DNA of 64,000 nt from Candidatus Shapirobacteria bacterium (GCA_016188545.1 JACPHO010000001.1:90774-154773); one strand, 5' to 3'; shown: positions 361 through 42,766, counted from the stretch's first letter. Program-made: numbers and translations. Notes: generated from the sequence alone by a model not told the origin.

Positions 361-1227
361 ATGAGTCAAATAACCATTGATGCTGCCCTTAATTTGTTCA
401 CTGGAGCACTTGCCAAGAGAGGCAAGTCAACTAATACTATTGTAGCCTACAAGGGAGACATCAACCAATTAATCAACTTCCTTAAGTCTCAAAACATAAC
501 TACCATTGACGACATTCTTGCCACCCACATTGAAGCCTTCAAAAAAGATCTAATCAACAACAATTACACCGCCAAATCAGTCTCCCGCAAACTAAATTCT
601 ATCAAAAACTTTTTCTCATTCCTCTTATCTGAAAGTGTTATTACCAAGGATCCTTCCACCGAAGTTAAGCATCCAAAATATGAAAACGATATACCCAAGA
701 TCCTCAAACCTTTAGAGTATCGCTCTCTTCGTGATGCTTGTCGTAACGACGTCCGTTCCACTGCTATTGTCGAGCTAATGCTCCAGTCAGGTCTTCGCAT
801 CAAAGAAATCGAAAATCTAAAACTAGAGAACATCCGTGAGAATGACATTTTTATCGAGAGTTATGAAAGTCACTCTTCTCGTGTCGTACCTATGAATAAT
901 TCTGCTAAAACAGCTCTCAAAAAGTATCTCGATGAAGGCCGCTATCAGTCCAAAGCCAAGAACGTCTTTGTCACCAAAACTGGTCGTCATCTTCTAGCCC
1001 GTAATATCCGCAGTTTACTCAATCGTTATTTTGACAAAGCCGACATCAAAGGTGTCAAAGTTAATGACCTACGCAACACCTTTATTGTCTTCCAGCTCAA
1101 ATCAGGCGTCCCCATTGACGTCGTTTCCCAGGTTGTTGGACACAAGCGCATTTCCACTACCGAAAAATATCTCGAACTCATCGATTCCAAAGAAGAATCA
1201 AAAGGCATAAAATTAAAAGAATTATAA
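361..1227 (+). CDS. tyrosine site-specific recombinase (XerC/XerD/phage-integrase family)
   Basis: Lys-rich N-terminal core-binding domain. C-terminal catalytic signature ...VGHKRISTTEKYLEL (His-x-x-Arg ... Tyr nucleophile), typical of tyrosine recombinases. Confidence 0.85.
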   Translation: MSQITIDAALNLFTGALAKRGKSTNTIVAYKGDINQLINFLKSQNITTIDDILATHIEAFKKDLINNNYTAKSVSRKLNSIKNFFSFLLSESVITKDPSTEVKHPKYENDIPKILKPLEYRSLRDACRNDVRSTAIVELMLQSGLRIKEIENLKLENIRENDIFIESYESHSSRVVPMNNSAKTALKKYLDEGRYQSKAKNVFVTKTGRHLLARNIRSLLNRYFDKADIKGVKVNDLRNTFIVFQLKSGVPIDVVSQVVGHKRISTTEKYLELIDSKEESKGIKLKEL

Positions 1228-3866: not shown

Positions 3867-4270
3867 TCTTGTTTAAATTTTACATTACCTTTCCTCTTTT
3901 TTATTAGTTTGAGTAAAAATCCGGATAGCCATCTACCCGCTTCGTTGACTGTTTTCTTAAACCCCTCTACAAACCTAGCCCGGGTAACTGGTAGAACCAC
4001 TTTTGGATTTTGGTTTGGAGTCGGTACTAGTACTGGCTGTCCACTGTCATCATGAACAGTCTTCATTTGCCCTGGGTCTTCCTCGATCTTTTGCATCCAG
4101 CTTTTTACTTCGTGAGGAACTCGTGGAGTTGTCTCTCTAACATCAGTCATTACCTCGACCTTATGTCGCCGCTCAGTACCTGTTATTACCTCAGGTTTTT
4201 GTTCTGTTCTAGTTTCTAGAATCTCGTTTCTAGTTTCTGTCCCAAGGTTTTCTTTAGCTTCTGCCATCAA
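3863..4270 (-). CDS. hypothetical charged protein, 4-nt overlap with and upstream of the VirB4-like gene
   Basis: 135-aa ORF. Translationally coupled (ATGA-type overlap) to the ATPase gene. No recognisable motif. Confidence 0.35.
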   Translation of the reverse strand: MMAEAKENLGTETRNEILETRTEQKPEVITGTERRHKVEVMTDVRETTPRVPHEVKSWMQKIEEDPGQMKTVHDDSGQPVLVPTPNQNPKVVLPVTRARFVEGFKKTVNEAGRWLSGFLLKLIKKRKGNVKFKQE

Positions 4271-4332: not shown

Positions 4333-4412
4333 GGTCATTGCGAGGAACAGTTACCACAGTGACCTGCCTACCGGCAGGCAGGCGTGGCAATCTCGTTGGA
4401 ATCACTCCAGCC
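4333..4412 (+). repeat. GC-rich hairpin repeat element, copy A (TCATTGCGAGG ... CCTGCC-TACC-GGCAGG ... GGCAATCTCGTTGGAATCACTCCAGCC)
   Basis: Seen directly. Shares a 5' box, a perfect 6-bp hairpin and a 3' 27-nt box with copies at 14652 and 42657. It is GC-rich within AT-rich intergenic DNA. Confidence 0.6.
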
Positions 4413-4443
4413 TTGTTTTTCCTTCCTATTCTCGTTTCTACCC

Positions 4444-4881
4444 TTACTTTATCTTTTCTGCCAAACCATCGTATACGTCAGCCAACCAAGCCACTGATGA
4501 TGAAAACTTTAAACTTTCACCAGTAATTTTATCTGGAATTTTTTTCATTAAAATATCCATCCCTCGGTCAGAATCCAAAAGGACTGCTCCAAGCAGCACT
4601 GAACCCGTACCTGTTGCTAACTCTCCAGGAATAAGTTTGGTTACAATACTATCTACTTCCGGGTTAGTCAAAATTGATACCAATGCGCCTGCATCAATTA
4701 ATACGCCACCTACTATCAAACAATCCCCGACGGTAATCTCATGTTCTCCTACAGCCCTCAATCGCTCTGCATTTTTCTGTAAAAATTCTCTTACCCCAGT
4801 TTTTAATGATTCTTTTGCGCTACTACTAATAATATCTTTCATTCGAAATTCTAGCACGAATAATTGCCATTTCACTCTCAA
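4444..4881 (-). CDS. hypothetical protein
   Basis: 145-aa ORF with coding-like composition. Gly-rich segment PGELATGTGSVLLGAV. No confident family assignment. Confidence 0.4.
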   Translation of the reverse strand: MRVKWQLFVLEFRMKDIISSSAKESLKTGVREFLQKNAERLRAVGEHEITVGDCLIVGGVLIDAGALVSILTNPEVDSIVTKLIPGELATGTGSVLLGAVLLDSDRGMDILMKKIPDKITGESLKFSSSVAWLADVYDGLAEKIK

Positions 4882-4920
4882 CTATTCACTGTCATACATA
4901 GTTTATATTTTTTATAGAAT

Positions 4921-5039
4921 TCCTAATTCCTAATTCCTAATTCCTAATTCCTAATTCCTAATTCCTAATTCCTAATTCCTAATTCCTAATTCCTAATTCC
5001 TAATTCCTAATTCCTAATTCCTAATTATTAATTATTAAT
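4921..5039. repeat. heptanucleotide microsatellite (CCTAATT)15 followed by (ATTAATT)2
   Basis: Counted directly: 15 perfect CCTAATT units at 4921-5025, then 2 ATTAATT units to 5039. It lies in the divergent intergenic region between the starts of 4444..4881 (-) and 5061..6245 (+). It ends 21 nt before the ATG at 5061. Confidence 0.95.
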
Positions 5040-5060
5040 TCACGTTATACTACCTTAACT

Positions 5061-8590: not shown

Positions 8591-8604
8591 TATTCTCATT
8601 TCAT

Positions 8605-8639
8605 TGAAAATTGAAAATTGTAAATTATAAATTGAAAAA
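8605..8639. repeat. five imperfect heptads (TGAAAAT-like) plus an adjacent 6-bp inverted repeat TGGCAG...CTGCCA
   Basis: Seen directly, immediately upstream of the transporter gene. A second AATT-containing 7-mer repeat placed in a promoter region. Confidence 0.45.
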
Positions 8640-8667: not shown

Positions 8668-9732
8668 ATGTTCATGGGCACTGTTGGCTCAGGCATTTTT
8701 GTCCTGCCTTATCTCTTTTATCATTCCAACTTTATTTTTGCGGTTTTCTTTTTACTTATCCTCGGACTGGTGACCGGGGTTCTCAACCACTTTTATGCCC
8801 ACATTGTCACCTCTACTTCCGGCGACCACCAACTTGCCGGTTATGCCCGCATTTACCTTGGTCATCGATTTGCATCTTTGGCTACTCTCAACTTACTCTT
8901 ACTTTCTTTCGGAGCCATTGCCGTTTATCTCAAACTTTTTGTTAGTTTTATCTCCTTGCTCTTCCCCACATTTTCTCCGTTTTTACTTTTGACTTTTTAC
9001 TTTTTACTTTTATCTCTACTCTACTTTCTCTACTTTCACCCCTCGCCAACTTTCGACTTTATCATCCCCGTCTTTATGCTCCTCATTCCCATTTTTTTAT
9101 TTGTTTATTCATTTAGATTTTCACTATTAACTATTAACTATTCACTATTAACTAGTCCATCCTTCAAGTTCTTCGGTGCTACCATCTATGCTCTTTCTGG
9201 TTTCACTATTATTCCCGAAGTACAGGAAATTCTCTTAAAGGACAAAAAACACCGTCACTCATTACCACTGGTCGTTACTCTGGGAATGATTATGGTTATC
9301 TTTTGCTATCTCATGTTTATATATGGGGTCATCGCCATCAGCAATGGGGGAGTAAGTATCGATGCAGTCACTGGTCTCTCCCGTTCGACCCCTCTATTGG
9401 CTAAAATTATTTCCGGTTTTGGAGCGGTCATTGTTATGCGGGCTTCTTTCGGATTTCTCATTGTTCTGCGGGAACTGTTTTTCCGTGACCTGTCACTTCC
9501 CAAAAATCTTTCCAACATTCTCCCCTTATCATTCCCCATTCTGGCGCTGACTCTGGGATCGATATCACTTATTTCCCTCATCTCTCTGACAGGCAATATT
9601 ACTATTTTCGTTTCTGCTTTGCTAATTTGTCTCATCCGCCTCCGGCTCCCCACCACTTTTTGGACTCAATTTTGGGTACTGTTAGTACTCATCAGCCTAT
9701 TTCTTGGTTTAGTCATCAACTTTATTTTCTAG
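8668..9732 (+). CDS. polytopic membrane transporter, possibly amino-acid permease-like
   Basis: The six-frame ORF starts at a TTG at 8611. The first ATG (MFMGTVGSGIFVLPYLF...) is at about 8668. It has about 10 TM helices. GSGIFVLP resembles the amino-acid permease N-terminal motif. Confidence 0.45.
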   Translation: MFMGTVGSGIFVLPYLFYHSNFIFAVFFLLILGLVTGVLNHFYAHIVTSTSGDHQLAGYARIYLGHRFASLATLNLLLLSFGAIAVYLKLFVSFISLLFPTFSPFLLLTFYFLLLSLLYFLYFHPSPTFDFIIPVFMLLIPIFLFVYSFRFSLLTINYSLLTSPSFKFFGATIYALSGFTIIPEVQEILLKDKKHRHSLPLVVTLGMIMVIFCYLMFIYGVIAISNGGVSIDAVTGLSRSTPLLAKIISGFGAVIVMRASFGFLIVLRELFFRDLSLPKNLSNILPLSFPILALTLGSISLISLISLTGNITIFVSALLICLIRLRLPTTFWTQFWVLLVLISLFLGLVINFIF

Positions 9733-11425: not shown

Positions 11426-13219
11426 ATGGAGTCGCAGGTTCAGGAAATTAAACAAAAGCTGGATATTGTCGAAATTATTGGCAAGTTTCTCCCGCTCAAA
11501 AAGCGTGGTCGCCACTATCTAACCAACTGCCCGTTTCATGGCGAAAAAACCCCCTCATTCACCATCTCCCCAGAGTTACAAATTTTCAAATGTTTTGGCT
11601 GTGGCAAAGCCGGGGACGTTTTTACTTTTATCCAAGAATATGAACATGTCGATTTCAAAGATGCTCTCGAAGACCTCGCCAAAGTGGCTGGGATAGTTCT
11701 CAAAAAAGATCCCCATCTGACCCAAGTCGAAAAACTTCATCGTCGTCTCATCGATCTCAATCAAGAAGCGGCCAAATTCTATCACTACATCCTTACCGCT
11801 CATCCGCTAGGTAAACCGGCTCTCGACTATTTACTAAATCGTCATATCACTCTCGACACTATCAAAACATTTCGGCTGGGTTATTCGCCCTCAAATCCCG
11901 AATTGGTTTCAAACTATCTTCAAAAAAAAGGTTTTACAAAGGCGGAGATGTTGGCGAGTGGTACCTATGGCACCTCCCGTTATGGCAATAGTATGTATGA
12001 TCGGTTTCTTGGTCGGGTCATCTTCCCCCAGTCAGATTTTCGTGACCGCATATTAGGGTTTTCAGGACGGATATTACCATCCGATAAATCCCAAAATCAA
12101 GCCAAATACATCAATTCGCCCGAGACCGATATATACCACAAAAGTCAGATGCTTTACGGAATCAATCTTGCTCGAGAAGAAATTAAACGCCAAAAATCAA
12201 CCATTATTGTCGAAGGTGAGTTCGATATGATTTCACCTTATCAAGAGGGGATTAAAAATATTGTCGCCATCAAAGGAACTGCTTTCACTACCGAACAACT
12301 TCAACTTCTTCACCGTTACACTGATACACTCATCCTCGCCCTAGATGAGGATTTGGCGGGTACAAATGCTTCTCTTAAAAGTATCGAAGTCGCCGACACC
12401 ATGGGATTCGATATCCATGTCATCGATCTCCAAAATAAGTTCAAAGATCCTGACGAAGCCATAATGGCTGACCCCCAATTTTTTAAAACCCAGTTGGCCA
12501 CTCCGGTTCCCATCTGGGATTTTATTATCAATTCAGCTCTAAAATCTCACGATTCGTCTACTCCCAAGGGCAAACAAGACATCCTTCGCCAAGTCCTCCC
12601 TTTCCTTGCCAAAATTTCCAATTTAGTCACCCGTTCCGATTATCTAAGTAAACTAGCAAGTCAGCTTGGCTCCTCACCCGAGGCAGTTATTGCCGAGTCT
12701 CAGAAATACAAAAATAATTCATCCAAATTAATTGAAGATCAAAGTTTGAAGATTGAAGATCTACCCGCAAAAATTCCCAAAATGGATATCCTAGAAGAAC
12801 ATCTTCTTAGTCTAATTTTTTCTGCCAAAAAACCCTATCTTCTGGCAACTAAAATCACCGAACATTTTGCATTTATTACCCAACGTTACCAAAAAGTCTT
12901 TAGTTATCTTCTAAAACCCCGTAAAAATTTTGTGGCCGCCAAGTTTGCCTCCCGTTTACCACCAGAACTATCATCGGTCTTTCAGGATATTTTTCTTCAC
13001 TCTACCCAGTTTGAATTTGACTCCCACTCTCGGCTATCAGAGATCAACAAAACTATCAATCAGATCAAATCGATTACCTATAAAGACCAGTTAACCACCC
13101 TGAGCACAAAAATTGCTCAAGCTGAAAATCAGGGAGAAGAAGAAATTGTCAAAAAACTGGAACAGGATTATAATCATATACTCTCAGAATTGTCTCAGGT
13201 CCAATCTACAAAAAGGTAG
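11426..13219 (+). CDS. dnaG: DNA primase
   Basis: CHC2 zinc finger [11 protein letters not shown]...[15 protein letters not shown] segment [11 protein letters not shown] and LALDEDLAG. Confidence 0.95.
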
Positions 13220-14339: not shown

Positions 14340-14651
14340 ACTATGTTCGACAAACTACTTAGCCCTTTTCCAGCGCAACCCGATGGTAGTCGTTTGCTAT
14401 ATCGCAAATAGACTGCAAGAATAGCCACTGTTGAAGAGATGAGCACGGAGTCAGGATCTGTTGATACATCAAATATTGGCAGAGTAGTCATTACAACTCA
14501 CAAAAATTTTGGCGAACCAATTAAGGTCGAAATCGAACCGGGTCAAGTATCGGTACTTCCTGCCATAAATATCGAAACTACAGTTACACTAATGCCTCGA
14601 AAACCAAAAAGTTAGACCAATAGTTTGTTTTCACTGCAAGACAATAAACTA

Positions 14652-14830
14652 CGTCATTGCGCCTGCCCGCCTCTGGAGGGAGGAGCATTTACCATAGTGA
14701 CCTGCCTACCGGCAGGCAGGCGTGACAACCTCGTTGGAACCTCCACAGCCTCTCGCCACAGTAGCCTCTCGCCACAGTCTTATTTACGTTTTTACTTTTG
14801 TCTTTTGAATTTTGAATTTTTTTTACACAT
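14652..14830 (+). repeat. GC-rich hairpin repeat element copy B plus AT-rich tail module
   Basis: TCATTGCG at 14654. Hairpin CCTGCC-TACC-GGCAGG at 14701-14716. 3' box GACAACCTCGTTGGAACCTCCACAGCC at 14724-14750. Tandem 11-mer TCTCGCCACAG x2. Then TCTTATTTACGTTTTTACTTTTG...TTTTGAATTTTGAATTTT. Confidence 0.6.
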
Positions 14831-14848: not shown

Positions 14849-16093
14849 GTGTCCAAAAAGTTATTTTTCATAGGTTTTTTCCTCATCTCTATTCTCTATC
14901 TTTTTCTCCGTCTTTGGCAGCTTCCTCAAAAACTCGACTTCCGTCTCGATCAGGCTTTCTTTCTCACCGAGAGTAAGTCGACGATCGAGTCATCCACTCC
15001 GCGACTCCTTGGCCCTCCCACATCTAAAATTTTCGAAGGTCGTAGTTTTTATGTCGGATCTAATTACTATTATCTTTTAGGAGTCATCGGTCACCTCAAC
15101 AGTTGGGATCCTTTAGCTATCACCATCTTTTTTATTATTTTCGAATTCATTTTTTATCTCCTTTTTATATATTTTTTGAGACAAAAATTCGGCATAACTT
15201 CCTCCCTTTTAGTCTTTTGGTTTATTGCGGTATCACCTTATTTAGTCGCCCACAGTCGCTTCTTTTGGAATCCTCATATGTTGATACCATTATCAATTAT
15301 TGCGCTATATAGCCTGGAAAAATATATCGCCACTCATAAATATATTTTCCTGATCCTCGCTTCTTTTGCCTGGGGACTGGCTTTCTCCTGTCACTACAGC
15401 CCTATTTTTTGGCTGCCGATTTTTATCTATTTTTTAATCAAGTCGAAACTATTCATAAACCCGCCCGTCCGGCAGGCGGGTCTTAAATCATACCTCATAA
15501 TTCTTCTAGGCATTTTTATTGGCGATCTGCCTTTTTTCATTTTCGAACTCCGCCATCAGTTTTATAACCTCCGGACATTTTTCTTTGTCTACTCCCATTC
15601 CATCGAAAGCGGGGGACTCACCTCCCACTATTTCATCTTCCCCCTTTTAGTTTTTACTTTTTATTTTTTATTTTTGTTTTTTTCTCACCGTCTTGTTCTA
15701 ATTTCTAGTTTCCTGTTTCTCGTTACTACCTATCAATTCTATCTCTACCCCCACTACCCCTCGCTCGGAGCCGTCGCCGGTTGGGATTATCCCACCCAGG
15801 TCAGAGTCGCTGATTATATAAGTAAAAACTGCCCCTCAAACTTTAACGTTGCCGCCACCATACAAGGGGATACTCGTTTTTATGATTTGCGTTTTTTACT
15901 AGAGAAAAATAATTGTCATCCCGATAGTGTCGATGCTTATCCCACTTCCAAAACATTATTTCTAGTTTCACCCCATGATCGATCTCCTGAAGCCGAGACA
16001 GTTTGGGAAGTCGACTCGCTTCGTCCCTTTACTATCACTTCAAAAACCAAGTTAAACGATTTTCTTGATCTCTATTTCCTCACCCGCCTTTAG
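14849..16093 (+). CDS. polytopic membrane protein, possibly GT-C-fold (ArnT/PMT-like) glycosyltransferase
   Basis: 414 aa with more than 10 TM helices. First predicted loop after TM1 carries an acidic motif (RLDQAFFLTE). Family assignment is weak. Confidence 0.4.
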   Translation: MSKKLFFIGFFLISILYLFLRLWQLPQKLDFRLDQAFFLTESKSTIESSTPRLLGPPTSKIFEGRSFYVGSNYYYLLGVIGHLNSWDPLAITIFFIIFEFIFYLLFIYFLRQKFGITSSLLVFWFIAVSPYLVAHSRFFWNPHMLIPLSIIALYSLEKYIATHKYIFLILASFAWGLAFSCHYSPIFWLPIFIYFLIKSKLFINPPVRQAGLKSYLIILLGIFIGDLPFFIFELRHQFYNLRTFFFVYSHSIESGGLTSHYFIFPLLVFTFYFLFLFFSHRLVLISSFLFLVTTYQFYLYPHYPSLGAVAGWDYPTQVRVADYISKNCPSNFNVAATIQGDTRFYDLRFLLEKNNCHPDSVDAYPTSKTLFLVSPHDRSPEAETVWEVDSLRPFTITSKTKLNDFLDLYFLTRL

Positions 16094-16127
16094 TTAGTCT
16101 CCAATTCGTCTCTGGTTTCTTTTTATC

Positions 16128-16156
16128 GTTTTTACTTTTTACTTTTGAATTTTGTT
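16128..16156. repeat. 29-bp AT-rich direct repeat GTTTTTACTTTTTACTTTTGAATTTTGTT, copy 1
   Basis: Identical 29-mer recurs at 16627-16655. The two copies bracket the 155-aa histidine-phosphatase gene. Each copy abuts the stop codon of a minus-strand gene. Confidence 0.7.
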
Positions 16157-16606
16157 TTTATCATCCTGCATTTCCACTGCCACCATCTGTCCATTCTCCA
16201 ACCGTCTTTTATTATCGTCTTGCAGGTAAGAAATCATTTCAATAGTTGAGAGGTGACTAATTACTAAGATTGTATCGTTTGGCTCATGATCGTATCTTAA
16301 ATCATCCAAAAACAAATCAATCTTATCTTTAAAGTGTTCATAATTCTCACTTTTCTTTTTATGTCCCACTAGGCTAGTTAGGTAAATTGGCATATCATCA
16401 TCGCGTACCCGCAATATTTCATCTAGTGTTTGAATACATCTTGGTTTTGGTGAGCAATATATAGCATCAAATTTCTGGTCTTTCAAACTCTCTGCCAGCT
16501 TTATAGCCTGAACCACTCCAACAGCAGTTAAGTTGTTTTCATCTCCAGCAACTTTATAACCCCGATTATGAGCGGATTCTCCATGTCGGACTAATATCAA
16601 TTTCAT
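16139..16606 (-). CDS. histidine phosphatase (phosphoglycerate-mutase family)
   Basis: N-terminal LILVRHGESAHN (RHG catalytic motif). Confidence 0.85.
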   Translation of the reverse strand: MKLILVRHGESAHNRGYKVAGDENNLTAVGVVQAIKLAESLKDQKFDAIYCSPKPRCIQTLDEILRVRDDDMPIYLTSLVGHKKKSENYEHFKDKIDLFLDDLRYDHEPNDTILVISHLSTIEMISYLQDDNKRRLENGQMVAVEMQDDKNKIQK

Positions 16607-16626
16607 ATGCGCTATTTTACAATATA

Positions 16627-16655
16627 GTTTTTACTTTTTACTTTTGAATTTTGTT
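16627..16655. repeat. 29-bp AT-rich direct repeat, copy 2
   Basis: Identical to 16128-16156. Related TTTTTACTTTTGAATTTTG-like tails follow repeat copies B and C. Confidence 0.7.
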
Positions 16656-16661
16656 CTTACT

Positions 16662-17665: not shown

Positions 17666-18343
17666 ATGGGATTTGCAGGAAAAGTGGCTGAAAAAGAGTA
17701 TGCTATTTCTCTAAGAGAAAAAGGTTACTCCTATAATCAAATTCAAAAAATCACCGGACTTTCAAAGGATACTATTTCAAGGTCATGTCGTGACGTAGTT
17801 CTAACTTCACAACAAATTAAACATCTTGAATCTCGGCGTACTGCTGGGCAAATGTTAGCTTCTATTAAGGGAGCAAAAGCCAACCAACTCAAAAGACAAA
17901 TAATGCAACAGCAATTACTTGACGAAGGTATAAAGCAGGTTGGTGAGTTGTCCGTTCGAGATAAATTTATTTTCGGAATCTCTCTTTACCTTGGCGAGGG
18001 TTCCAAAACGGGCAGTGGTGTCGAATTTACAAATTCCGACCCGTCCACGGTTTTGTTCATGTACAGATGGTTTAAAGATTTCTGTGAAATACCCAGTAAA
18101 GACATCAGGGCTAGTCTGTGGATACACGATAATCTAGATGAATCCAAAGCAAAAACATATTGGTCAGAGCTACTCGGAATTAACTTAGATCAGTTTGATA
18201 AGTCATACATCGCCAAAAACAAATTAAATAGCCTTAAAGTACGTAAAAATATTCATCAATACGGTATCATTAAACTAAGATACTATAGTGTAGTTAAATT
18301 ACGCCTAATATTAGGCTGGATAAAAGGTGTACTTTCTGGCTAA
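17666..18343 (+). CDS. HTH-domain protein with a C-terminal LAGLIDADG-like (homing-endonuclease-like) region
   Basis: N-terminal helix-turn-helix (YSYNQIQKITGLSKDTISR). Downstream FIFGISLYLGEGSKTGSGVEFTNSD...IRASLWIHD...LLGI...K resembles a single, variant LAGLIDADG core. It ends 47 nt before the intron-containing tRNA. Confidence 0.3.
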   Translation: MGFAGKVAEKEYAISLREKGYSYNQIQKITGLSKDTISRSCRDVVLTSQQIKHLESRRTAGQMLASIKGAKANQLKRQIMQQQLLDEGIKQVGELSVRDKFIFGISLYLGEGSKTGSGVEFTNSDPSTVLFMYRWFKDFCEIPSKDIRASLWIHDNLDESKAKTYWSELLGINLDQFDKSYIAKNKLNSLKVRKNIHQYGIIKLRYYSVVKLRLILGWIKGVLSG

Positions 18344-18390: not shown

Positions 18391-18682
18391 TCCCCCTTAG
18401 CTCAGTGGTAGAGCGCTCGCCTGTGAATGAAAATCGCAGCTTTCTCAAGTAATTGAGACTGAAACTCCGGAAGAATTCAGGGAAGCCTAAGATACCTTAC
18501 GGTATTATGGTAATCCTGAGCCGATCCCCAACGCAAAGTTGGGGCAGGTGCAGAGACTAGGTGGTACACCGTTTAGCCTCCGGCTCCTGACTATTGTCAG
18601 GATGAAAAGATAGTCCAGGCCTCAATGAAAGTTGAGGATTCCTGTAAGCGATTGGTCCGAAGTTCGAATCTTCGAGGGGGAG
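18391..18682 (+). tRNA. tRNA-Asn(GUU) split by a group I intron between nt 35 and 36
   Basis: Exons 18391-18424 and 18645-18682 fold into a cloverleaf: acceptor UCCCCCU/AGGGGGA, D-arm GCUC-AGUGGUA-GAGC, anticodon stem CUCGC/GCGAU, loop CUGUUAA, T-arm CGAAG-UUCGAAU-CUUCG. It has U1-A72 and discriminator G73. No CCA is encoded. Confidence 0.7.
18425..18644 (+). ncRNA. group I self-splicing intron (small tRNA-type, no ORF)
   Basis: Recognised pairings: P1 exon CUGU with intron GCAG; P2 TCTCAA/TTGAGA; P6 CCCCAA/TTGGGG; P7 GACTA/TAGTC within conserved CAGAGACTA and AAGATAGTCC elements; P8 CCTGAC/GTCAGG; P9 CCTCAA/TTGAGG. Terminal G at 18644. Confidence 0.75.
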
Positions 18683-18759: not shown

Positions 18760-19284
18760 ATGAACTTGATACTCCTTGGAGGAAATGGTGTCGAAAATAA
18801 GATGTGGATTGAAAAGATTGAAACCACGCTTAAACCATTATTTTCAACTACCTATATTCAATATTACATGCACTGGCAAAAGGGAGGGGAAATGGTAGAT
18901 ATCAACCTTGAGGCGAACAAGTTGTCAAGCTATGCAAAAGACATTAGGGAATATGTAATTTTTGCAAAATCAGCAGGAATTCTGATAACCGCAAAAGCAG
19001 TTCACGATAATGCCTTAAGACCTGTAAAATGTATTTTCACTGGCATTCCAATAAGTTGGGCAATAAGTAAAGGTTTTGATATATCAAACTGGTTTGAAGG
19101 ATTTAAGGACACCTCCTTAGTGATCCAGCACAACGAAGATCCGTTCGCATCTTCTAAAAACGTATCAGAGTTTATTACCAAGGAAAATATGATTAACACA
19201 AATTTGGTCGAACTTCCGGGGAATACACACGATTACCTTGAGTACGATAGAATAAAAAAAATAGTCGCGGATTTTGTCTACTAA
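18760..19284 (+). CDS. hypothetical protein (possibly alpha/beta-hydrolase-like)
   Basis: 174-aa ORF. First gene of the islet downstream of the tRNA. Weak fold guess only. Confidence 0.3.
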   Translation: MNLILLGGNGVENKMWIEKIETTLKPLFSTTYIQYYMHWQKGGEMVDINLEANKLSSYAKDIREYVIFAKSAGILITAKAVHDNALRPVKCIFTGIPISWAISKGFDISNWFEGFKDTSLVIQHNEDPFASSKNVSEFITKENMINTNLVELPGNTHDYLEYDRIKKIVADFVY

Positions 19285-23351: not shown

Positions 23352-23942
23352 TCAGCTTTTGTTGGTAGATAGCCTAGAATTTTCTATGTCCCTGAAAAAC
23401 TGGTCAATAAAGTCATTTCTATGAAGTAACTCCCCAGTTTTTATCGTGGTTTTTGTAACAAAGTCACTTTTTTTAACGCCTCTCATGCTCACACACAAAT
23501 GCTCTGCCCCCACATGAACAATAAGTCCCTTGGGATGCAAGTTTTTCTCTATTGATTCTGATAGTTGATTTGTTAAGTTCTCCTGAGTTTGTAGTCTTTT
23601 CGAGAAAGAATCAACTAGCCTAGCAAATTTAGATAAACCCAACACCTTTCCATTTGGAACATACCCAATGTGAACCTTCCCTTAAAATGGAATCATATGG
23701 TGTTCGCATAAACTATAGAAACTTATGTTTGCGACTGTAATTAGTTCGTGATAACCGTTGCTTTCAAACGTCTTAAATATTGAGACGATATCGTCGTTAT
23801 AACCAGAGAATAACTCCTTGTACATCTTTATTACCCGCTGGGGTGTCTCAACTAAACCCTCCCTCCCAGCATCTTCCCCAAGATAAGTAAGTAAGCCTTT
23901 TATCAAATCCGTTGCATATTTATCGTTTTTTTGCGTCTCCAT
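23352..23942 (-). pseudogene. folE: GTP cyclohydrolase I (folE) interrupted by one in-frame TAA
   Basis: N-part ...REGLVETPQRVIKMY...CEHHMIPF, then TAA (plus-strand TTA at 23682-23684), then in the same frame GKVHIGYVPNGKVLGLSKFARLVDSFSKRLQTQE...VHVGAEHLCVSMRGV. The stop replaces the aromatic residue that is Tyr in B. subtilis FolE and Phe in E. coli FolE. Confidence 0.85.
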
Positions 23943-24229
23943 AGATTATATCTTTTACTTATTTGCGTAATTATACGATTATTATGCTCACAGTCAAGAT
24001 ATGAACATAAACTAACTTTGGTATATCAAATACATAGTTCCTCTCCCAACCAATTACGTAAACAAGTAAAGTTTCGGTATATATACCATATCTCTGAGTA
24101 TTAAGTAGTGAAAATAGGCATAAAGTTGCTATGTAGACTAGAATTTAGGTAAGTTTTAACCCATTCCTCTATCCGAGTACTATCCCAACGAGGGAGCACT
24201 TCGGCAAGCTCAGTGCAAGCTTGTCAAAA

Positions 24230-24532
24230 ATGAAAACAGAAAATTGGTATACATACATTCTTTTGTGCGATCAGAAAACTTCTTATGTCTGAATAACAAA
24301 TGATTTAAAAAGTCATATAAATAGTCATAAATCAAAACAAACATTTTTTACAAAAAAGTTTTCTGATATACGATTAGTATATTGCGAAAAATACGGAACC
24401 AACCATGAAGCTGCTCTTCGTGAAAAACAAATCAAAGGATGGAGCCGCACAAAAAAGCAAATGTTGATTGAAGGTAAACTAGGAATCAATCGCTACACTG
24501 AGTTTGACGAAATTCTTTCCCATTTAGATTGA
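24230..24532 (+). pseudogene. small GIY-YIG nuclease-superfamily gene (YhbQ/UPF0213-like) with in-frame TGA at the conserved Gly
   Basis: Manual translation: MKTENWYTYILLCDQKTSYV-TGA(24290)-ITNDLKSHINSHKSK...FSDIRLVYCEKYGTNHEAALREKQIKGWSRTKKQMLIEG... The TGA sits where the G of the Y-[IV]-G motif is expected. Confidence 0.65.
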
Positions 24533-24561
24533 ACCTTGTGAGTTTACTTCGAGCGAAGCCG

Positions 24562-24610
24562 AGAAGAATCCTCGAGGGGGAGCATTAAAAAAGTCCGACA
24601 AAAATGGCGG
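24562..24610 (+). repeat. direct repeat of the tRNA-Asn 3' end (att-like)
   Basis: GAATCCTCGAGGGGGAGCA (24566-24584) matches tRNA 3' end GAATCTTCGAGGGGGAGCA (18666-18684) at 18/19 positions. The following approximately 25 nt are also similar (TAAAAAA...CC...AAAAAT in both). Same orientation, 5.9 kb apart. Confidence 0.6.
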
Positions 24611-41484: not shown

Positions 41485-42600
41485 ATGGATGCCCAAAAAA
41501 TCACCAATCTAAGAGTCAAACTCATGAAGCTTGCCAAGAGTCTTCGGGTTTCTGTCATTCCCCCCGACGCCGATTTGGAAAAGCCCCAAGGTGTCCGCGA
41601 CGACACAGTTCTCTTTGAAGGCAAGTCCCTCCATCGTCGACGCATAGTTCTTCTGACTCCAAAATGCACTTCTGCCTCTTGTCTAATGTGTCCTCTTCCC
41701 AACGAAGCCCTCGACAACCGCACTATTACTCCAGAGCAAATCATCAAACAGTACGATAGTTGTTTTGGTCAACCCAACGACCACGAAATCGAAACCATTT
41801 CACTTTACACCAATGGAAATTTCTTCGCCGACAATGAGATCCCTGAAGTAGTCAAGGAGCATATCTACCGTCACATCAGCACTACCAATGCCAAATATGT
41901 TTTAGTCGAATCTTTGCCTCAATTTGTTAACGAACAAAAATTAGCGTTAGCCAAAAAATATCTCAAGGACAAAGTCCTAATTACTGCCATCGGCCTCCAA
42001 TCATCTTCAGACCTGGTTCGTCAAATCTCGGTCAATACTACCTGTACCCAGGAATCATTTGAGAAGGCTTATCATCTTTCTCGCAAGTTTGGATTTGATA
42101 TCCAAGCATTTTTAATGATCAAGCCTCCCTTTCTCACCGAAACTGAGGCCATCAACGACTGTGTCGACTCCATTGGTTATCTATACCAATTGGGTATCAA
42201 AAATCCCACTCTTTGCGCCTGTCGCGCCGCTCCCAATACCGTCCTTGATATTCTTCGACTAGATGGCAAGTATCATTCCCCTTGGTTATGGACTGTCGCT
42301 GAAGTTATGACAAGATCTGCCGAGAAATATCCCCAGTCTGTCCCAATGTTGGTTATTAATGAACTTTTATCCGAAAAAAATCTCGACTCCACTGTCTCTC
42401 ACAATTGCGACGAGTGTTCTGCCAGCGTTATCCAAGCCCTTGTTCGATTCAATGCCGACCGCAACGTCGCTGCCCTCAAAAGTGTCACCCACACTTGTTA
42501 TCAAAATTATTTACAAGAGCGAAAAACTGAAGACGAATTTGCCTCCACTCATTCCCTTGTCTGGCGTGTCGAAGACTTTCTCACTACTCACAGTCTCTAA
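41485..42600 (+). CDS. radical-SAM-like TIM-barrel protein with non-canonical Cx4Cx2C cluster motif (hypothetical)
   Basis: IVLLTPKCTSASCLMCP then ISLYTNGNFF, YVLVESLPQFV and ITAIGLQSSSD strands. The spacing resembles radical SAM core strands but the Cys motif is CX4CX2C, not CX3CX2C. Confidence 0.35.
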   Translation: MDAQKITNLRVKLMKLAKSLRVSVIPPDADLEKPQGVRDDTVLFEGKSLHRRRIVLLTPKCTSASCLMCPLPNEALDNRTITPEQIIKQYDSCFGQPNDHEIETISLYTNGNFFADNEIPEVVKEHIYRHISTTNAKYVLVESLPQFVNEQKLALAKKYLKDKVLITAIGLQSSSDLVRQISVNTTCTQESFEKAYHLSRKFGFDIQAFLMIKPPFLTETEAINDCVDSIGYLYQLGIKNPTLCACRAAPNTVLDILRLDGKYHSPWLWTVAEVMTRSAEKYPQSVPMLVINELLSEKNLDSTVSHNCDECSASVIQALVRFNADRNVAALKSVTHTCYQNYLQERKTEDEFASTHSLVWRVEDFLTTHSL

Positions 42601-42656
42601 AACAAATTGCCAATAACTTATTATTTGCAATTTGTAATTTGAATTTTTACTCCCCA

Positions 42657-42766
42657 CGTCATTGCGAGGGGTTTATCCCCGCGGCAATCTCGTTGGAACC
42701 TCCACAGCCTTTCGTCCCAGTCTTATTTACGTTTTTACTTTTTACTTTTGATTTTTTACTTTTACG
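42657..42766 (+). repeat. GC-rich hairpin repeat element copy C plus AT-rich tail
   Basis: TCATTGCGAGG at 42659. Alternative hairpin GGGG-TTTAT-CCCC. 3' box GGCAATCTCGTTGGAACCTCCACAGCC at 42683-42709. TCTTATTTACGTTTTTACTTTTTACTTTTGATTTTTTACTTTTACG. Confidence 0.6.

Follow-up and report, generated by a model that had tools for sequence, protein, structure and literature searches.

A three-copy hairpin repeat in a Candidatus Shapirobacteria genome and its likeness to the single-stranded DNA sites of Ssn-type nucleases

What kind of element is a GC-rich hairpin that recurs between the genes of an AT-rich, reduced genome? The question is raised by a stretch of 64,000 nucleotides from Candidatus Shapirobacteria bacterium (hereafter the window), a member of the candidate phyla radiation (CPR). 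The window has a G+C content of 40% and encodes dnaG, rpoD and a glycosyltransferase-like gene with a PMT_2 domain, and its RpoD is 84-96% identical to Candidatus Shapirobacteria proteins. An original prediction, made from the sequence alone, described a repeat family with three copies, here called A, B and C, and offered three identities for it, i.e., a small RNA, a protein-binding element like the repetitive extragenic palindromic (REP) and BIME sequences, or a miniature mobile element. The analysis reported here leads us to favour, with moderate confidence, a different assignment, in which A, B and C are a lineage-specific variant of the NTS and Ssn-related motif (SRM) hairpins, which are oriented hairpins of single-stranded DNA (ssDNA) and sites of Ssn-type nucleases, rather than small RNA genes or terminators.

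The three copies are a true repeat family. They share the frame CGTCATTGC...GCAATCTCG-TTGGAAYC..CAGCC, and all of them are intergenic and lie on the plus strand (Table 1). The sequence GTCATTGCGAGG is exact in copy A (4334-4345) and copy C (42658-42669), and the 5′ box of copy B is split into GTCATTGCG, a GC insertion of ~19 nt (14662-14680) and then GAGG. The near-identical 27-mer GGCAATCTCGTTGGAACCTCCACAGCC, with which each copy had been said to close, is exact in C (42683-42709) and has two mismatches in B (14724-14750) and four in A (4386-4412); shuffled sequence gives no match to it, i.e., 0 chance matches are expected. The pattern GTCATTGC-N16-46-GCAATCTCG matches twice in the window versus 0.00 times in 100 shuffles, and the three intergenic copies per 64 kb compare with 0 expected in this window. 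A covariance model of the copies, which the original prediction had proposed as a check, was built from seven family members and searched against the window with filters off; it recovered exactly A, B and C at 60-69 bits, the next best score being 7.7 bits. The predicted three-copy family is thus confirmed at its places, with all copies on the same strand.

The anatomy of the element is clearest in copy C, the simplest and best-folding copy, whose fold, ACG(TC)ATTGC-GAGG-[GGGG TTTAT CCCC]-GCG-GCAAT(CT)CGT, is the same with DNA and RNA parameters and is followed by the 3′ extension TGGAACCTCCACAGCC. This canonical fold is the DNA minimum-free-energy structure of C (-9.7 kcal/mol, z = -3.8), and likewise of the copy in L079, a metagenome contig (z = -3.4). 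Copy A runs in the order GTC and ATTGC stem, GAGG, loop, CGTG, GCAAT stem, C and 3′ extension TCGTTGGAATCACTCCAGCC; its ATTGC/GCAAT stem is complementary but lies outside the DNA minimum-free-energy structure. In A and C, ATTGC..GCAAT is directly followed by C and then TCG. The 3′ stem of copy B is mutated to ACAAC, so that two of the five stem pairs are gone, and the C after the stem is retained; with its lost pairs, the insertion in its 5′ box and a duplication behind it, copy B looks decayed. Besides L079, the family includes a copy in the Shapirobacteria genome L078 and one in L088, the closest relative (96% RpoD identity). These three keep the frame with a different inner sequence, namely TCCGCC/GGCGGA in L079, TCC-TGAGCGAAGTCGAA-GGA in L078 and an unpaired loop in L088. 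The 5′ flank is CGTCAT in B, C and the copies of L078, L079 and L088, and GGTCAT in A. In general, the element consists of an invariant (C)GTC, the stem ATTGC, an internal loop GAG(G)...CGNR that accepts any inserted hairpin, the stem GCAAT, an invariant C, TCG and a lineage-specific extension of ~20 nt.

This extension contains the conserved GTTGGAA(T/C)C(A)C(T/C)CC (4395-4412, 14733-14750 and 42692-42709). In sequence it is like the 16S rRNA 3′ terminus (GGTTGGATCACCTCC), down to the anti-Shine-Dalgarno sequence CCTCC, and its minus strand reads as a Shine-Dalgarno-like GGAGG. A reading of the extension as a Shine-Dalgarno or anti-Shine-Dalgarno sequence (GTTGGAATCAC-TCC against GGTTGGATCACCTCC) was rejected, as there is no match to small-subunit rRNA even at E<=10 and no conserved minus-strand open reading frame (ORF) downstream. 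Mimicry of a tRNA 3′ end was rejected as well, because the geometry does not fit and ARAGORN finds 0 tRNA genes in the window.

The inner hairpins named in the original prediction, CCTGCC-TACC-GGCAGG in A and B and GGGG-TTTAT-CCCC in C, are present as claimed, and the pattern of conserved boxes around a swapped hairpin, which had been taken as a sign of selection on structure, is real. However, compensatory evolution explains this pattern less well than the nesting of a 20-nt palindrome. In the alignment, the loops of A and B equal the L088 loop plus a 20-nt GC palindrome, CTGCCTACCGGCAGGCAGGC, placed between GAC and GTGG. The nested mini-palindrome reads CCTGCCTACCGGCAGGCAGG in copy A (4363-4382) and is the same in copy B (14701-14720). 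The swapped hairpin therefore represents the nested insertion of a second, smaller element rather than a compensatory change in one helix, and nested insertions are also the reason why A and B are longer than 50 nt, the upper limit of the NTS/SRM inverted repeats (20-50 nt). A related 21-nt palindrome stands in frame in the PMT_2 gene (Table 1) and has CCGGCAGGC in common with the A/B mini-palindrome; the seven residues that it adds are missing from both PMT_2 orthologues (L088 and L080). As judged from these alignments, the loop of the element is a landing site for a separate 20-nt GC mini-palindrome. Small palindromes that enter genes in frame or nest in repeats are known as Rickettsia palindromic elements and cyanobacterial small dispersed repeats. 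Both are alike to the 21-nt insertion in PMT_2 and the 20-nt insertions in the A and B loops; the likeness is limited to the nested mini-palindrome and excludes the CGTCATTGC frame, and the sequences are unrelated.

The bridge from the element to a known system was the proteobacterial form of the hairpin, GTCATTCCCGCG; a literature search with GCGAGG-type strings returned primer coincidences only. Chenal et al. (Nat Commun 2025; PMC11893778) defined the Neisseria NTS hairpin, a degenerate SRM and the SsnA nuclease. SsnA is a single-domain GIY-YIG nuclease of 94 amino acids (aa) from the Ssn family (cd10448 in CDD), which binds the NTS hairpin and cuts a few nucleotides upstream of it, in ssDNA only and on one strand only, and which does not bind the RNA form of the NTS (PMC11893778). 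The NTS is CGTCATTCCCGCGMAVGCGGGAATCYRG with the core CGTCATTCCCGCG..CGCGGGAATCYRG, i.e., CGTCATT-CCCGCG..CGCGGG-AATCYRG. Cleavage is under the control of the trinucleotide that precedes the palindrome, binding depends most on the C that directly follows it, and the identity of the loop is dispensable, its replacement or extension being tolerated (PMC11893778). The same study reported that ssnA genes are typically flanked by the motif, that the NTS encompasses dRS3, and that dRS3/NTS sequences are enriched near variable genes (PMC11893778).

The Shapirobacteria element is like the NTS and SRM hairpins in having an oriented CGTCAT(T) right before the stem, a stem of the form AT.. ..AT, the invariant C and then Y-N-G; written as CGTCATT-GC..GC-AATCTCG, it has flanks identical to those of the NTS. 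Both are intergenic and beside variable genes, both occur in more than one copy (three for the element in the window), and both have a loop that is dispensable or can be extended. In addition, a candidate Ssn-family gene is present in the same genome, and hairpins of the same class flank Ssn-like genes on cyanobacterial and Bacteroidota plasmids. The two differ in that the element has a stem of 5 bp (ATTGC), the internal loop GAGG/CGNR and a variable inner hairpin, whereas the published hairpin has a continuous stem of 8-9 bp; the 3′ extension of ~20 nt is known only from this lineage, and the host phylum is absent from the main text of the paper. Intergenic palindromes of the dRS3/NIME type in Neisseria (ATTCCC-N8-GGGAAT) are likewise found near variable genes and flank other repeat segments, just as B and C carry a common non-palindromic segment beside the hairpin. 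They differ in sequence, phylum and scale, with hundreds of copies in Neisseria, and no link to a phage or an IS110-type recombinase was seen in the present case.

How far the element extends depends on which part of it is searched for, so that the copy count suggested as a check by the original prediction gave a mixed answer. The 25-nt pattern CAAYCTCGTTGGAAYCNCYNCAGCC, which comprises the 3′ box and the extension, has one match in 185,579 GTDB species genomes (a Shapirobacteria bin) and one in the JGI metagenomes; it is too specific to serve as a census. In contrast, the core GTCATTGCGAGG-N5-35-GCAATCTCG is present in 76 viral contigs, where the units are often paired or clustered in alternating orientation. 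The covariance model finds 137 matching places in the loci examined, and viral loci match its positions 4-44 alone (20-31 bits), whereas Shapirobacteria-related loci match over the full length (60-74 bits). In the collections searched, then, a widespread core contrasts with a full unit that is confined to one lineage. Between the invariant GTC and the invariant C the stem variants covary: ATTGC/GCAAT, ATTCT/AGAAT, ATTAC/GTAAT, ATTCC/GGAAT, ATCCT/AGGAT, ATCCC/GGGAT and ATACCGGC/GCCGGTAT.

These data bear on a rival explanation, in which the element is a selfish or neutral palindromic repeat (REP/REPIN-like, or like a miniature inverted-repeat transposable element, MITE) that spreads by another enzyme or by recombination, its likeness to SRM flanks being convergent or due to shared ancestry and no Ssn nuclease acting here. 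The placement of the copies among relatives agrees with such a repeat. The gap between rpoD and the PMT_2 gene is 42 bp in L080 (94% RpoD identity) versus 509 bp in the window, where it holds one broken paralogue of a small gene, then ~220 nt with copy B, then the conserved PMT_2 promoter-like sequence; in L088 the same gap holds two small paralogous genes and no hairpin copy. Upstream of dnaG, L088 has a copy and the window has none. At the site of A, relatives have two adjacent divergent genes, and only the window has copy A, an extra ORF and an AATTCCT array of 17.7 copies. The repeats therefore sit in strain-variable DNA, which parallels the reported enrichment of dRS3/NTS sequences near variable genes. 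The nested insertions also indicate that small palindromes move in this genome, B and C have ~60 nt of downstream sequence in common, as from the copying of a larger segment, and the local Ssn-type gene is apparently a pseudogene, with a different flanking hairpin (see below). However, the oriented, non-palindromic GTC and C flanks are exactly kept across phyla while the stems covary, which indicates sequence-specific recognition. The element also lacks terminal inverted repeats, target-site duplications and a GTAG head, and a selfish or neutral repeat of this kind is, on balance, unlikely.

The mobile-element identity offered by the original prediction is, in its strict sense, not supported, since the only inverted repeat is the internal hairpin and the flanks of A, B and C have no duplication in common. 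The protein-binding, REP/BIME-like identity came closest of the three, as the oriented flanks CGTCAT..stem..stem′-ATC-Y-N-G recur in NTS/SRM, but the details of the REP class do not fit. REP sequences have the head GT(A/G)G. They and the related BIME and REPIN-RAYT systems are alike to the element as imperfect extragenic palindromes with an oriented conserved head that are read as ssDNA hairpins by a small HUH enzyme, and the hairpins of the viral loci cluster in alternating orientation as BIMEs do. They differ from the element, whose head is GTCA and whose associated enzyme family is GIY-YIG rather than HUH. The RAYT transposase domain (Y1_Tnp) is absent from the 25 Pfam families displayed, of 66 hit, for the 63 ORFs of the window, to which this search was confined.

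A second rival places the function of the unit at the RNA level, as that of a terminator, a small RNA or a stabiliser of the 3′-untranslated region. In its favour, the copies occupy intergenic DNA, for the most part close to gene 3′ ends, with a stable GC hairpin in AT-rich DNA and T-rich sequence downstream in B and C, and position -1 is mostly T, so that a G-T/G-U wobble is possible on this strand only. The original prediction had placed all copies just past gene 3′ ends. This holds for C, which lies between convergent gene ends, but A is framed by the stop of one minus-strand ORF and by the start of the following one, and is antisense to both; B has a broken small ORF before it and the promoter of the PMT_2 gene (14849-16093) after it. 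The further statement that the copies are not simple terminators proved right: no T-run follows the main hairpin, terminator prediction calls none at B or C, and the sole terminator-like call near any copy is a small hairpin of the 3′ extension (4395-4411) with a T-run behind A. RNA fold z-scores of the copies are unremarkable (-0.9 to -1.5), and Rfam 15, searched in gathering and E-value modes, returned nothing relevant for the window, the three regions or 17 related loci. A Hatchet ribozyme hit (17.8 bits versus a threshold of 51) depended on cutting the stretch at 42600 and was lost when further sequence was included, and hammerhead (GUC followed by a stem, but no CUGANGA), k-turn and loop E motifs were rejected by eye, as the strands do not fit. 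No consistent promoter or terminator and no consistent orientation to genes accompanies the copies, they are missing at the syntenic sites of relatives, and SsnA does not bind NTS RNA, all of which makes an RNA-level element, including the small RNA first proposed, distinctly improbable.

The preferred assignment to Ssn-type nuclease sites directs attention to a single-domain GIY-YIG gene of 100 codons in the window, a candidate of the Ssn type (Table 1). In the conserved YVG, an in-frame TGA (24290-24292) takes the place of the Gly codon, i.e., the window reads SYV-TGA-IT where homologues have FYVGIT. Intact CPR homologues are many and are 60-82% identical (79-82% for P0121 and P0126), the remaining 79 aa of the gene are 99% identical to MBI2464639.1, and NCBI annotates just that 79-aa part. 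Recoding of TGA (code 25) was considered and rejected, given that TGA is the ordinary stop of 9 of the 52 window genes and that the neighbouring folE is broken by TAA; the GIY-YIG gene is therefore broken, by a nonsense mutation or an assembly error, and is apparently a pseudogene. The folE gene (GTP cyclohydrolase I; 23352-23942, minus strand) is split by an in-frame TAA (23682-23684) within the conserved HHMIPF-x-GK. A small gene after rpoD (14344-14615, plus strand), the broken paralogue mentioned above, stops after 21 codons and is homologous to intact tandem paralogues of 92 and 93 aa in L088 (5410-5996; MLNxFxxxFPAQPDGSRL...). With the GIY-YIG gene, these make three interrupted genes within 10 kb.

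Outside the CPR, a tblastn search of a homologue against a plasmid collection gave three informative loci. The matching ORF of a Neisseria gonorrhoeae chromosome (filed as a plasmid) has at least 12 canonical NTS copies around it, and hhalign relates the CPR GIY-YIG family to this NTS-flanked ORF with a probability of 98% (E 1.7e-13). On a Planktothrix plasmid, arrays of TGTCATTCTGAGTGAAACGAAGAATCTC and TGTCATCCTGAATG..GAAGGATCTC stand on either side of the GIY-YIG gene, the protein of which is 48% identical to that of the window; on a Spirosoma plasmid, TGTCATCCCGAGGAACGAGGGATC precedes the GIY-YIG gene and is present there in both orientations. The latter two loci indicate that hairpins of the form GTCAT-stem-GAG..CGAA-stem-ATC accompany Ssn-type genes outside Proteobacteria. 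On the strength of these protein comparisons, the genome of the window is placed in a lineage that carries the Ssn-type gene family.

The surroundings of the GIY-YIG gene have an organization of their own. In the window (24196-24586) and around intact homologues (L090-L094 and L102-L117), an inverted hairpin, the gene, a second hairpin and ~15 nt resembling a tRNA 3′ end follow one another; the motif is an inverted pair of stem-TGAGYTTRCCGAA-stem (24200-24212, minus; 24539-24563, plus). The right hairpin closes with GAATCCTCGAGGGGGAGCA, which looks like the 3′ end of a tRNA and in which CGAGGGAGCA, a sequence also present upstream of the gene, recurs. In L113 (and, from upstream sequence, in L114 and L115), the cassette stands directly behind tRNA-Gln, the 3′ end of which is repeated over 19 nt at the end of the cassette. 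The genes downstream of the identical protein P0151 are of at least five different kinds (HEPN_AbiV, DUF5343 and others). Such a cassette looks like a mobile, tRNA-gene-targeting unit. In L082 (700-1210), tRNA-Ile and tRNA-Met enclose a second small GIY-YIG gene of a different sort (79 aa; 812-1051, minus strand), beside which stands a fragment like a tRNA 5′ half that is interrupted by the 36-nt GC hairpin CCTGCCCGCAATGCTTCGCATAGCGATGCAGGCGGG.

The cassettes invite a third rival, in which A, B and C are solo remnants of GIY-YIG cassette ends, or att-like sites that go back to tRNA 3′ ends. The right ends have the same build as the element (a hairpin with a GAG..CGAA loop, AATC and ~15 nt, the latter being the tRNA-Gln repeat in L113-L115), and AATCCTCGAGGGGG at the window cassette resembles AATCTCGTTGG of the element. 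The inner hairpin of L078 has the cassette stem and the same TGAG..CGAA loop ends, and it is the only bridge between motifs of the CGTCATTGC type and the cassette motif. However, no left-end motif lies near any of the three copies, all 17 cassette loci examined lack the 5′ box CGTCATTGC, and the extension does not fit the tRNA geometry, as noted above; derivation from cassette ends is accordingly highly improbable.

Several observations weigh against Ssn-type nuclease sites as the identity of the element itself. The Ssn-type gene of the window is broken, and both it and its intact homologues are flanked by stem-TGAGYTTRCCGAA-stem, not by hairpins of the CGTCATTGC type. No copy was found in the relatives' contigs L080-L087 and L089, nor around the homologous GIY-YIG genes of L090-L094, and a family hidden Markov model run over all ORFs of the 76 core-carrying viral loci finds no GIY-YIG gene. 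(GIY-YIG genes in viral contigs were found at three loci; among solved proteins, those of UPF0213 come nearest to their type, and hairpins are missing from the flanks of all three.) The copy number is low, with three in 64 kb, whereas the species highlighted by Chenal et al. carry hundreds, and the conserved 3′ extension has no account under this assignment. Finally, the published SRM search pattern, HGTCWYN(0-2)YYVSBRHN(0-5)WNVSBRGN(0-2)RNCYNB (PMC11893778), has 0 matches in the window and in copies A-C, while a control NTS matches. By inspection, its 5′ part (HGTCWY) and 3′ part (RNCYNB) fit the element, and its stem/loop part (YYVSBRH..) fails, because the stem composition and the interrupted helix fall outside the pattern. 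The Planktothrix-type hairpin GTCATTCT..AGAATC, which flanks an Ssn-like gene, fails the pattern too.

By analogy with the Neisseria system, a mechanism can be proposed for the preferred assignment. When the plus strand becomes single-stranded, for instance in DNA uptake, replication or repair, the hairpin would fold, and an Ssn-type nuclease would recognise the stem along with its GTC and C flanks and place a nick a few nucleotides 5′ of CGTC. Such a nick would shorten the homology available for recombination around the flanked genes, and it may perhaps aid the spread of the repeat. The nonsense codon in the sole Ssn-type gene of the window, and the lost pairs and insertions of copy B, would then reflect partial decay, i.e., the element was probably recognised by an Ssn-type nuclease in the past and is now partly decaying here. 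A more far-reaching and rather doubtful proposal is that CPR Ssn-type genes are tiny autonomous cassettes (hairpin, gene, hairpin and a copy of a tRNA 3′ end) that integrate at tRNA genes and seed hairpins like A-C, the loops of which would then receive GC palindromes of ~20 nt, which are also able to enter protein genes in frame.

Table 1. Features of the hairpin family and of the GIY-YIG cassette in the window (positions count from the first nucleotide)
Feature	Position	Strand	Remarks
Copy A	4334-4412	+	covariance model 69.1 bits
Diverged T-rich stretch behind A	4413-4443	+	reaches stop of minus-strand ORF 4444-4881; weakly like the B/C tail
Copy B, degenerate	14653-14750	+	covariance model 60.0 bits
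Perfect 16-nt tandem duplication AGCCTCTCGCCACAGT x2	14747-14778	+	directly after B; period 16, 2.0 copies, 100% matches
T-rich heptamer tail of B	14779-14824	+	ends just upstream of conserved PMT_2 promoter-like TACAATTAGTTGTGTCC
21-nt perfect GC palindrome CCCGCCCGTCCGGCAGGCGGG	15460-15480	+	in frame in PMT_2 gene; adds PVRQAGL
Left inverted cassette hairpin GCAC-TGAGCTTGCCGAA-GTGC	24196-24216	-	
Single-domain GIY-YIG gene, Ssn-type candidate, 100 codons	24230-24532	+	PF01541, 54 bits with TGA read as G
Right cassette hairpin TGAGTTTAC with nested TTC-GAGCGAAGCCGA-GAA and GAATCCTCGAGGGGGAGCA	24539-24586	+	
Copy C	42657-42709	+	covariance model 64.4 bits
Segment common with B (TTTCGTCCCAGTCTTATTTACG and T-rich heptamers) behind C	42710-42763	+	family D3

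The sequences behind the copies are composite. The AT-rich tail that B and C had been said to share is real (family D3; 86% identity over 58 nt), but its T-rich part belongs to a separate heptamer family of the (TTTTTAC)n type with at least six sites, including some without a hairpin (8980-9011, 15645-15682, 16124-16160 and 16623-16659). What had been described as a tandem 11-mer in copy B is actually the 16-nt duplication listed in Table 1, the unit of which is single in copy C. Period-7 tandem repeats are unusually many in the window, in intergenic and coding DNA alike (AATTCCT x17.7, TTTTTAC, TTCTAGT, ATTGAAA, ACTATTA and others; 4207-4238, 4918-5041, 8603-8638, 8980-9011, 9123-9154, 12731-12760, 14803-14820, 15645-15682, 16119-16146 and 16628-16645), and they recall the heptamer STRR repeats of cyanobacteria. 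Directly after the stop of the ORF 41485-42600 and distinct from copy C, an AT-rich palindrome, CAAATTGC..GCAATTTG (42598-42650), with T-runs on both sides, is plausible as a bidirectional terminator of the convergent gene pair. A group I intron (18415-18637, plus strand; RF00028, 69.8 bits) lies between the ORFs 17666-18343 (225 aa, weak HTH_7) and 18760-19284 (174 aa), and no rRNA or tRNA gene was detected at its position.

The element explains a recurrent GC-rich intergenic motif in AT-rich reduced genomes, and it carries a warning for annotation, as such motifs and their nested mini-palindromes can give rise to in-frame insertions and spurious ORFs. The first description of the Ssn/SRM system dates from 2025, and Neisseria is the only genus in which its role was put to the test. 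The published SRM pattern misses a large and widespread class of sites, GTCATT-NN-GAG..CGAA-NN-AATCTC, which flank Ssn-like genes in cyanobacteria and Bacteroidota. If the assignment proposed here is true, the system would extend to Patescibacteria with a different site architecture, i.e., a short stem, a conserved internal loop and a variable insert, and the insert would be the natural counterpart of the engineered loop extensions that are tolerated in vitro. The choice of ssDNA-nuclease specificities that can serve as tools would grow as well. Were the cassette proposal to hold as well, the Ssn nuclease would drive a novel class of mobile elements based on ssDNA, beyond its part as a restriction-like modulator of transformation.

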